Below are positions 42,004 through 43,642 of a stretch of DNA of 64,000 bases, one piece after another. The position numbers and the translations under genes are program-made. The DNA is taken from the NCBI GenBank assembly GCA_963771075.1, contig CAVYSE010000009.1:32001-96000 (forward strand), read 5' to 3'. The stretch's first letter is position 1. Each line of letters opens with the position of its first letter. The notes below the pieces were generated by a model. It did not search any database and was not told the origin of the DNA. It was given only the letters and a program-made list of their open reading frames with translations. The DNA comes from a candidate division FCPU426 bacterium (lineage in GTDB: Bacteria > Oederibacteriota > Muellerivitia > Muellerivitales > Muellerivitaceae).

Positions 42004-42039
42004 AAAAAAACCCCGTCCCACAATGCGGGACGGGGTTTT
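42004..42039 (-). terminator. Intrinsic terminator after the OMP gene
   Basis: Minus strand CCCCGTCCCGC-ATT-GTGGGACGGGG followed by T7. Confidence 0.9.
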
Positions 42040-42050
42040 CGAACAACGAC

Positions 42051-43166
42051 TTAAAACTTGTAGGACAAATCAGCCTCAGACACGGTCACGATGGCGCCAC
42101 CATTATTATTATTGGAACCGCCAACCACATTCTCGTTCCCATAAAATATTCCATTTCCGGGCTGAACATTAGCAATGGAATTTTCCAAAGAGGTCGGACT
42201 TACAACGACATCCAAGGTGAAATTCTGCCAGTTGATCGAAGCGCCCGTATTGAAATTAAACGCGGTAGTATTTAGCGCATTATAAAGCTGCTTGGAGATG
42301 CCGGTGCGAAGAGTCAACCAGTCGGCAACTTTGGATTCAACGTTGCCGGTCCAGGCTAGGATGTAGTTATCCGCCGAGCCCTCGGTACCGACATAATCAA
42401 TCATCAAGCCGGTGGAAACCAAACCCTTGCCATCGTTGACCTTGCGGTTTGCGGCCAAGCCAACCACAACGTTTGAATCGCTTTGATTCGCAATGAAGGC
42501 GGGGTTCGACAGCAGGGCTAAATCCGCGAACATGCGCAAGTCATTATTGGCATCCAGATCCTTCTGGGCCAAAGCGCCGGCCGAAATGACAGAAGGCGCG
42601 TTCGATGCGGACGTGCCACCTGCGTATGCGCTAGCCATTTCATATCCGAGGTGGAAATTGATCTGGCTGAACGTGTCGGCGGTTACTCCCATGCCTAATT
42701 TAATGGCAATATCTCGGCCATAGTTGTTCCCGCTATCTCCCGCGGCGACCAGGCCGTTATAACCAGTATCGGAATAATCCACACCCACACCCAACGTAAG
42801 ACCGCTGAAATTATTGGCCCACAGGAGGTTCATCCTGTTGTTAGGAGCAGTGGCGGGTGTCGTACCAAGCGGGTTTTGAGAAGCTTGCTCAACTCCCGTA
42901 TAGTTCGCGTAAATCCCCATGGCTCCGATGGCGTCATCCTTCATGATCAAGCCACCCCAAACCGTGCCACCGGCAGGAATCAACCCACGAATATTGATGA
43001 TATTGCTGTAATCGTAGGCCTTGTTGGGATACAAGAAAACGGAATCCAAATCCTCATTCACGAAGAGGTTTGAACCCATCCCATCCAACCTGGCGCTCGC
43101 GAAAACCTTCATGGAGGCCCCCATCGCCATAAGACCAACCAAAAGCATCAAAAGACTTTTCTTCAT
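42051..43166 (-). CDS. Outer-membrane beta-barrel (porin-like) protein
   Basis: Signal peptide MKKSLL...VFA, amphipathic strands, C-terminal ADLSYKF beta-signal, AAGGAG RBS. Confidence 0.75.
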   Translation of the reverse strand: MKKSLLMLLVGLMAMGASMKVFASARLDGMGSNLFVNEDLDSVFLYPNKAYDYSNIINIRGLIPAGGTVWGGLIMKDDAIGAMGIYANYTGVEQASQNPLGTTPATAPNNRMNLLWANNFSGLTLGVGVDYSDTGYNGLVAAGDSGNNYGRDIAIKLGMGVTADTFSQINFHLGYEMASAYAGGTSASNAPSVISAGALAQKDLDANNDLRMFADLALLSNPAFIANQSDSNVVVGLAANRKVNDGKGLVSTGLMIDYVGTEGSADNYILAWTGNVESKVADWLTLRTGISKQLYNALNTTAFNFNTGASINWQNFTLDVVVSPTSLENSIANVQPGNGIFYGNENVVGGSNNNNGGAIVTVSEADLSYKF

Positions 43167-43496
43167 TCTCTCTCTCCTTAAAGCGCAAAGTGTTAGGGTT
43201 ACACTCCTCAGGGACGAGTGTGCTTCCCTACCTAAACAGCCCCGAAGGGCTGTTACAGCCACGTTACAAAGTTAGGGTAACACTCCTCAGGGACGAGTGT
43301 GTTTCCCTTCCTTGTAAGCCCCAACCGGGGCCCCTTCCGACTAAGCCTTGTAAAAGTTAGTAAATAACCTAAACAAGTCTTAATTTTTGAGGATGGTCCG
43401 GGTTTTAGACCCTTCCACCCAAATTACGGACCTCCTCAGGGAGAAGCCCGATTTCATTACAAAAAGGCATTGGCCAAACAAATGCCTTTAATAAAC
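43167..43496 (-). ncRNA. Putative structured 5' leader RNA of the OMP gene
   Basis: Lies between a consensus promoter and the ATG; at least 6 hairpins, three with (G)UCCCUGAG loops and one with a cUUCGg loop. Confidence 0.6.
43192..43311. repeat. Direct repeat of a 41-nt palindromic unit (43192-43232 and 43271-43311)
   Basis: 38/41 identical by hand alignment; a third partial copy lies at 43427-43450. Confidence 0.95.
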
Positions 43497-43502
43497 GAAA
43501 AA

Positions 43503-43531
43503 ACTATAAGTCTGTCCCATAGGCCTGTCAA
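43503..43531 (-). promoter_or_regulatory. Sigma70-type promoter for the OMP gene
   Basis: TTGACA-17 nt-TATAGT. Confidence 0.8.
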
Positions 43532-43642
43532 GGTTGAAAAGACCATGATTAGGGCAAAATCCACCCTATAAAGCATAAAAAGTTTACTTTCCAACTAAAT
43601 GTAGTGGTTTTTTTAACTCGAGCAGGCAAAAAGAAGCATTTT

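Follow-up and report, generated by a model that had tools for sequence, protein, structure and literature searches.

This locus raises the question of why a single message should display one loop sequence on several hairpins. The window, a stretch of 64,000 nucleotides from a candidate division FCPU426 bacterium, holds an outer membrane protein (OMP) gene whose leader an earlier note took to be a structured RNA of ~330 nt, a candidate new cis-regulatory element. One part of that proposal stands and the other does not. The window does appear to carry a new minus-strand cis element with a loop-displayed signal: it is real, apparently uncatalogued, restricted to one bacterial family and common to three porin mRNAs. 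The unit is a single hairpin with a 7-nt core, not a 330-nt RNA of three hairpins. The features concerned are as follows.

42007..42039, no strand assigned: inverted repeat with A/T runs at its flanks, 3' of the gene; a likely terminator, read from the sequence
42051..43166, minus strand: gene for a 371-aa outer-membrane beta-barrel with signal peptide and PopA-like fold (structure model and Foldseek)
43164..43179, minus strand: Shine-Dalgarno AAGGAG and ATG, read in the sequence
43192..43232, minus strand: hairpin 1, loop 43208-43214, 48 nt before the AUG; the positionally conserved copy
43235..43254, minus strand: cUUCGg tetraloop hairpin, between the duplicates hairpin 1 and hairpin 2
43271..43311, minus strand: hairpin 2, loop 43287-43293; duplicate of hairpin 1
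43389..43437, minus strand: alternative helix B (43427-43437 paired with 43389-43400), a folding prediction only
43427..43450, minus strand: hairpin 3, with UCCCUGA at 43436-43442 as its loop; helix B is a competing fold
43463..43489, minus strand: 5'-terminal hairpin followed by U5, in all four genomes of the genus; in G001 the U tract is not adjacent
43503..43531, minus strand: sigma70-type promoter TTGACA-17-TATAGT, matching 11 of 12 consensus positions

The promoter confirms the earlier reading: transcription is predicted to start near 43496, and the ATG at 43166 lies ~330 nt further on. The three hairpins, the cUUCGg hairpin and the downstream beta-barrel gene are likewise present as claimed; overlooked was the 5'-terminal hairpin at 43463-43489, which has a terminator-like look and is more likely a 5' stabilizing stem-loop. 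Several relatives have the word UUGGCC of its loop in their own first hairpin. An imperfect palindrome at 43591-43607, ~60 nt before the −35 box, resembles an NrdR box; many relatives have similar boxes, and a search of the window's genome (G000) did not single out nrd genes by this pattern.

Four peat metatranscriptome runs of one study yielded contigs identical to leader and gene. These join the leader to the coding sequence, but they carry no strand, 5' end or level, and DNA carry-over is possible. One contig spans 42986-43427 and none extends past 43466, limits that weakly fit a start near 43496; uncovered flanks are no sign of low expression. The choice of the minus strand is borne out by folding: against shuffles the leader reaches −128.3 kcal/mol (z −5.6) on that strand and −109.7 (z −5.1) on the plus strand, and all five hairpins that were compared gain stability when read as minus-strand RNA.

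Hairpins 1 and 2 are identical at 38 of 41 positions and lie within a 52-nt direct repeat spaced at 79 nt; G002 and G003, of the same genus, have one proximal copy where the window has two, so the pair is likely a local tandem duplication, and its identity by itself is no evidence of selection. The G003 copy of hairpin 3 has UCUUUGA for its loop.

Protein alignment finds PopA-like homologues in 25 of 31 family genomes, and the hairpin is present in all 22 readable promoter-led PopA-like leaders of the family, some of them first reached through the motif. In 23 of 23 leaders examined a TTGAC-16/18-TA.. promoter lies 218-353 nt before the AUG; in 22 of the 23 the loop sits at −39 to −50 relative to that codon. 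Leaders have one to three copies, and a copy as far out as −276 keeps the loop. A few loci depart from this picture: the G005 hairpin lies at a contig end, immediately before a start codon; the G009 gene begins at a contig edge; the sole PopA-like copy of G042 has neither this promoter nor the hairpin; G025, of a sister family, has the variant UCCCUUG at −42. Extra PopA-like paralogues mostly do without the hairpin, with one exception in G016.

The conserved unit is a hairpin with apex (U)CCCUGA and interchangeable stems. Across 33 aligned hairpins, 89% of cells are paired and 60 are changed on both sides; covariation is 0.78, versus 0.30 for shuffled and at most 0.17 for slid alignments. The hairpins were chosen for folding, so these figures lean favorable, and related genomes are not independent samples. 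The loop tolerates UCCCUGG, UCCCUAA, UCCUAGA, UCCCUUG and CCCCUCA at sizes from 7 to ~15 nt, and the closing pair may be U-G, C-G, A-U, G-C, U-A or open. Conservation of the loop despite turnover of the stem, first suspected from the window's copies, is thus seen in relatives as well. A metagenome pattern scan added four true leaders among 120 matches, the rest being read as chance, and no new loop variants. Outside the window's genus the leaders hold further conserved hairpins (L115:1230-1599 and others), which could be a larger structured RNA motif of their own; one of them, with a U-rich/GGG loop, is near-identical across genera and has no Rfam match.

What does the message encode? No Pfam match was found for the 371-aa protein, and its ESM Atlas neighbors are mostly unnamed clusters, one with 16% PF13505. 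The structure model, built on a six-row alignment, is a beta-barrel with N-terminal helices (mean pLDDT 55). Its best Foldseek matches are 9GF0/9GA1, Bdellovibrio pentameric OMP A (E 5e-8 to 8e-8, TM 0.51-0.54), which makes the PopA (Bd0427) superfamily the closest structural relative, at 13-15% identity and on a model of moderate confidence. PopA is described as the major OMP of Bdellovibrio (PMC12228718); the window's gene probably plays that part in this bacterium. Tandem arrays of two or three PopA-like genes, with terminator-like hairpins between them, occur at G002:C23:260580-264680, G016:C32:10484-15167 and G003:C13:54820-57461.

The element extends beyond this gene. When G000 was scanned exhaustively, the same loop turned up before two further porin genes, of the types BBP2 (PF07642) and Porin_O_P (PF07396). 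TCCCTGA occurs at 748 sites; 54 of these fall within putative 5' leaders, and six form hairpins of −7 kcal/mol or better; the six precede four genes, three OMP-like and one for a secreted protein, the last with a terminator-like hairpin. By a crude heuristic 46 of 3611 genes are OMP-like, and 120 permuted loops led to 102 genes, none of them OMP-like; the loop definition and energy cut were fixed after matches had been seen, so the enrichment leans favorable. Site C28:283465, the loop of a terminator-like hairpin, was left out as a member. At G000:C11:458160-458195, on the minus strand, a strong hairpin presents UCCCUGA in a 9-nt loop, and no gene was found downstream on that strand.

Orthologues collected by protein search provide a less circular test than the loop scan. 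For BBP2 genes with a sigma54-type promoter, 14 of 17 family genomes show NCCCUG(A/G) at the tip of a leader hairpin, and in 12 of them the distance to the AUG is 46-58 nt; the exceptions are G011 (a variant), G013 (ambiguous) and G009 (none). Porin_O_P leaders carry the loop in 5 of 14 genomes, with two more reached through the motif, and keep it at −105 to −152. Several Porin_O_P leaders lacking the UCCCUGA hairpin (among L061, L062, L067, L070, L071 and L077) have instead a short CCGG-GNRA-CCGG hairpin. The stems are unrelated between the three porin gene types. The element occurs after a sigma70-type promoter, after the sigma54-type promoter of the BBP2 genes that carry it, and inside operons; it is therefore not part of a promoter. 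It is also no general OMP tag, since 30 of the 33 OMP-like genes of G000 are without it and three have it.

A model search of 99 genomes of the phylum, scoring 75 candidates per genome, gave 21 matches outside the family; 20 overlap reading frames of at least 130 codons, no porin lies downstream of any, and they are read as chance. The one variant found outside is that of G025. Within the family, where 150 candidates per genome were scored, six of the best 48 of 472 non-training matches precede known porin types, one a lipoprotein gene near a PopA-like gene and one rplM; almost all of the others fall within reading frames, and no fourth porin family with the hairpin appeared among these 48. 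The lipoprotein gene (L145:576-1499, G021) has its own copy of the proximal hairpin and lies ~3 kb away from the PopA-like gene; the rplM case (L132, G043), with a UCCCUGA hairpin 48 nt before the gene, comes from one genome and may be chance.

Is this a known element under another guise? Rfam 15 gives no match in the window at the gathering threshold; below threshold there is only noise in the leader region and 20 relative loci, and nothing in 12 other loci. Nor is it a REP: blastn of the leader or its hairpins returns itself and short chance matches, and the exact 11-mer occurs four times.

The nearest resemblance is to a DNA site. CIRCE, the operator bound by HrcA, has 9-bp inverted arms around a 9-nt spacer of free sequence, at or beside the transcription start. 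The window's two copies read CACTC-N9-GAGTG, and the main hairpin of the family reads GCACTC-N9-GAGTGC, the CIRCE core, a pattern essentially restricted to the groES upstream region and this leader. That the OMP site is a degenerate CIRCE operator acting on DNA would also suit the presence of hrcA in 26 of 31 genomes and the non-CIRCE arms of G017, which has no hrcA match (82% complete); but G022 has hrcA and different arms all the same. The OMP sites depart from CIRCE at 3-6 of 18 positions, the groES sites at 0-2; the window's two copies, at 6 and 7 by hand count, exceed a five-mismatch cut. The spacer, of length 9 in both, is fixed in the OMP sites and variable in the groES sites, while the outer arms are lost. 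The OMP sites lie 180-246 nt after the −10 box, those of groES 10-14 nt where a box was found; and CIRCE arms are missing altogether from hairpin 3 and from the copies before BBP2 and Porin_O_P genes. An operator is thus highly improbable as the explanation, though a weak dual use may occur. G000, which has hrcA, carries a perfect CIRCE before groES (C18:133048-133074); G012, G014 and G024 have groES variants with one or two changes, and G015, with no hrcA match, has no site.

If the element is read as RNA, what reads it? The loop is very probably recognized in trans, because a fixed single-stranded sequence on free stems precedes unrelated genes, including short leaders with no partner in cis. 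Two suggestions of the earlier note fall away here. A CsrA/RsmA site was seen in the AGGGA of the opposite strand; that loop is antisense, the element being sense to the porin gene in every leader read, and no PF02599 (csrA) match was found in G000 (96.7% complete). Decoy or stabilizing Shine-Dalgarno sites would need, accessible in every copy, the GAGGAG that each hairpin was said to half-bury; it occurs in 15 of 33 aligned hairpins, mostly stem-paired, and in none of the 13 from BBP2 and Porin_O_P leaders.

That last absence also weighs against a structure that recruits ribosomes or is intrinsically stabilizing and that has no regulator of its own, being read by a housekeeping component such as S1, the 30S subunit or RNase J. 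In its favor are the fixed spacing before the AUG in two unrelated gene families, the probable standing of the gene as a major OMP, and an RNase complement in which G000 has RNase J, lacks a match to RNase Y and has none above the cut-off to RNase E/G; but a plain barrier needs no fixed loop sequence, and the loop persists in copies at −105 to −152 (Porin_O_P) and at −276, so we regard this as unlikely.

Less probable still is a tandem small-molecule riboswitch with dimerizing identical loops, as in guanidine-II. Several leaders do have two or three identical loops, and predicted alternative folds hide the Shine-Dalgarno. The tandem ligand sensor of the earlier note is hard to reconcile with single hairpins in BBP2, Porin_O_P and many PopA-like leaders, with an invariant core of few nucleotides, with three genes that have no evident metabolite in common, or with the lack of an Rfam match.

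Pairing with another RNA is a more serious contender, though we still think it doubtful. The loop would be the seed target of an Hfq-independent porin sRNA, or would form a kissing pair with another loop. Control by sRNAs at the leader is a classic trait of porin genes. FoxI-fomA is one sRNA-porin case (10.1101/2023.10.30.564711). At its 3' end the C-rich core accepts G in place of A, and the loop variants and variable loop size fit base pairing equally well. However, a crude scan of G000 surfaced no convincing unit of promoter, seed and terminator (104 listed intergenic-site rows, then five weak candidates), a scan blind to 3'-UTR-derived or short-seed RNAs; and the rRNA operon region offered no convincing complementary partner. 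For the kissing version, many leaders outside the window's genus have an upstream hairpin whose G-rich loop region pairs at 8 of 9 positions; several minimum-energy folds contain a long duplex between that region and the loop; and in G019 both loops have changed with pairing kept. Against it, neither the window's genus nor the short BBP2 leaders have the cis partner loop; in G013 and G010 the partner loop is altered with no matching change; G022 and G044 pair at only 5-6 of 9 positions by hand count; and four further metagenome leaders brought no variation. 

A protein reader is favored because copies multiply, Hfq was not found in G000 (96.7% complete) and no sRNA surfaced. Binding sites for a protein or an sRNA, as the earlier note put it, remain the leading idea, and the odds seem about even that the hairpin is the site of a trans-acting RNA-binding protein that co-regulates stability or translation of the three porin mRNAs. 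Counting against this reading, predicted folds frequently pair part of the (U)CCCUGA loop, its mean unpaired probability in the leaders examined ranging from 0.16 to 0.94. G000 has KhpA, a KhpB-like match, one RRM protein and RNase J. According to a preprint, little is known of how KhpA/B recognizes its targets, and Thermus KhpB contacts a C-rich 10-mer chiefly via the backbone (10.64898/2026.10.12.757534); because of this, KhpA/KhpB is a candidate only as reader of the loop. The RRM protein has a long Gly/Arg/Asn-rich tail, and its gene lies directly upstream of RNase J (G000:C3:53794-56278, L137), the two adjoining in 21 of 23 loci fetched. As a required partner it was rejected: it was not found in G013, G014, G019 and G024 (93-97% complete), all of which have the hairpin.

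Supposing a protein, the one to three copies could tune occupancy, and the bound factor might shield the message from RNase J or favor ribosome loading, an idea that arises from the position of the loop ~45-50 nt before the AUG. The window's genus may add a switch. Taken locally, hairpin 3 is the most favorable structure, but when the window's whole leader is folded the competing helix wins and the probability of hairpin 3 is 0.04; over the four genomes of the genus the values are 0.04, 0.00, 0.03 and 0.84. Where hairpin 3 is lost, its freed 5' arm pairs with the Shine-Dalgarno at probabilities of ~0.2-0.4, 0.8 and 0.7 respectively. Both pairings are kept in all four genomes, with one helix B pair changed on both sides. 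On these predictions helix B, which uses the 3' arm of hairpin 3, would open that hairpin and release its 5' arm to pair with the Shine-Dalgarno; a factor binding hairpin 3 would block helix B, free the Shine-Dalgarno and so activate. Long-range predictions of this kind are unreliable, and the direction of effect derives from fold prediction alone.

A broader and more tentative view would make the hairpin a portable address tag that marks out a porin regulon controlled after transcription, in a lineage that lacks Hfq, CsrA and RNase E. A single dedicated factor would switch on, protect or deliver the most abundant beta-barrel mRNAs to the site of envelope assembly, and the alternative folds of the major OMP leader would act as a switch that conceals or exposes the loop. 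In well-studied bacteria, Hfq-dependent sRNAs coordinate the synthesis of porins. In G000, Hfq, CsrA and RNase Y have no match and RNase E/G none above the cut-off, yet one loop is common to three porin mRNAs that are unrelated and come from different promoter types; this suggests that outer-membrane load is co-controlled in some other way. The range is one uncultured family plus the sister-family variant, and the element, ~25 nt with natural variants, is a ready-made bait for its factor.

Known systems supply parts of this picture. MicF, MicA and RybB are sRNAs that target several porin mRNAs; as in their targets and in FoxI-fomA, a short site near the ribosome-binding region is common to porin messages, but here it lies in a hairpin loop, and neither Hfq nor an sRNA was found. 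CsrA/RsmA GGA-loop sites and ANTAR dual hairpins display a motif in the loop on variable stems, with one to several copies per leader; here the loop sequence is another, csrA was not found and single hairpins are common. The E. coli ompA 5' UTR stabilizer, like the leader of this probable major OMP mRNA, is long and folded and has a stem-loop at its 5' terminus, but it needs structure and is not known to need a loop sequence common to other porin mRNAs. Analogous in context is the SLH motif RNA, an uncharacterized structured leader, proposed to be a riboswitch, before cell-envelope protein genes of Synergistaceae and Firmicutes (PMC6429828); compared by description only, it is alike as the structured leader of an envelope gene, while the window's downstream protein has no Pfam domain. 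A literature search, with subscription journals, figures and supplements outside its scope, found no published description of a UCCCUGA hairpin motif in porin or OMP leaders; among the matches listed, those to the bare heptamer mostly concern animal microRNAs, a coincidence. The kind of element is thus already known, a recognition site displayed in the loop of an OMP leader; its UCCCUGA version is apparently new.
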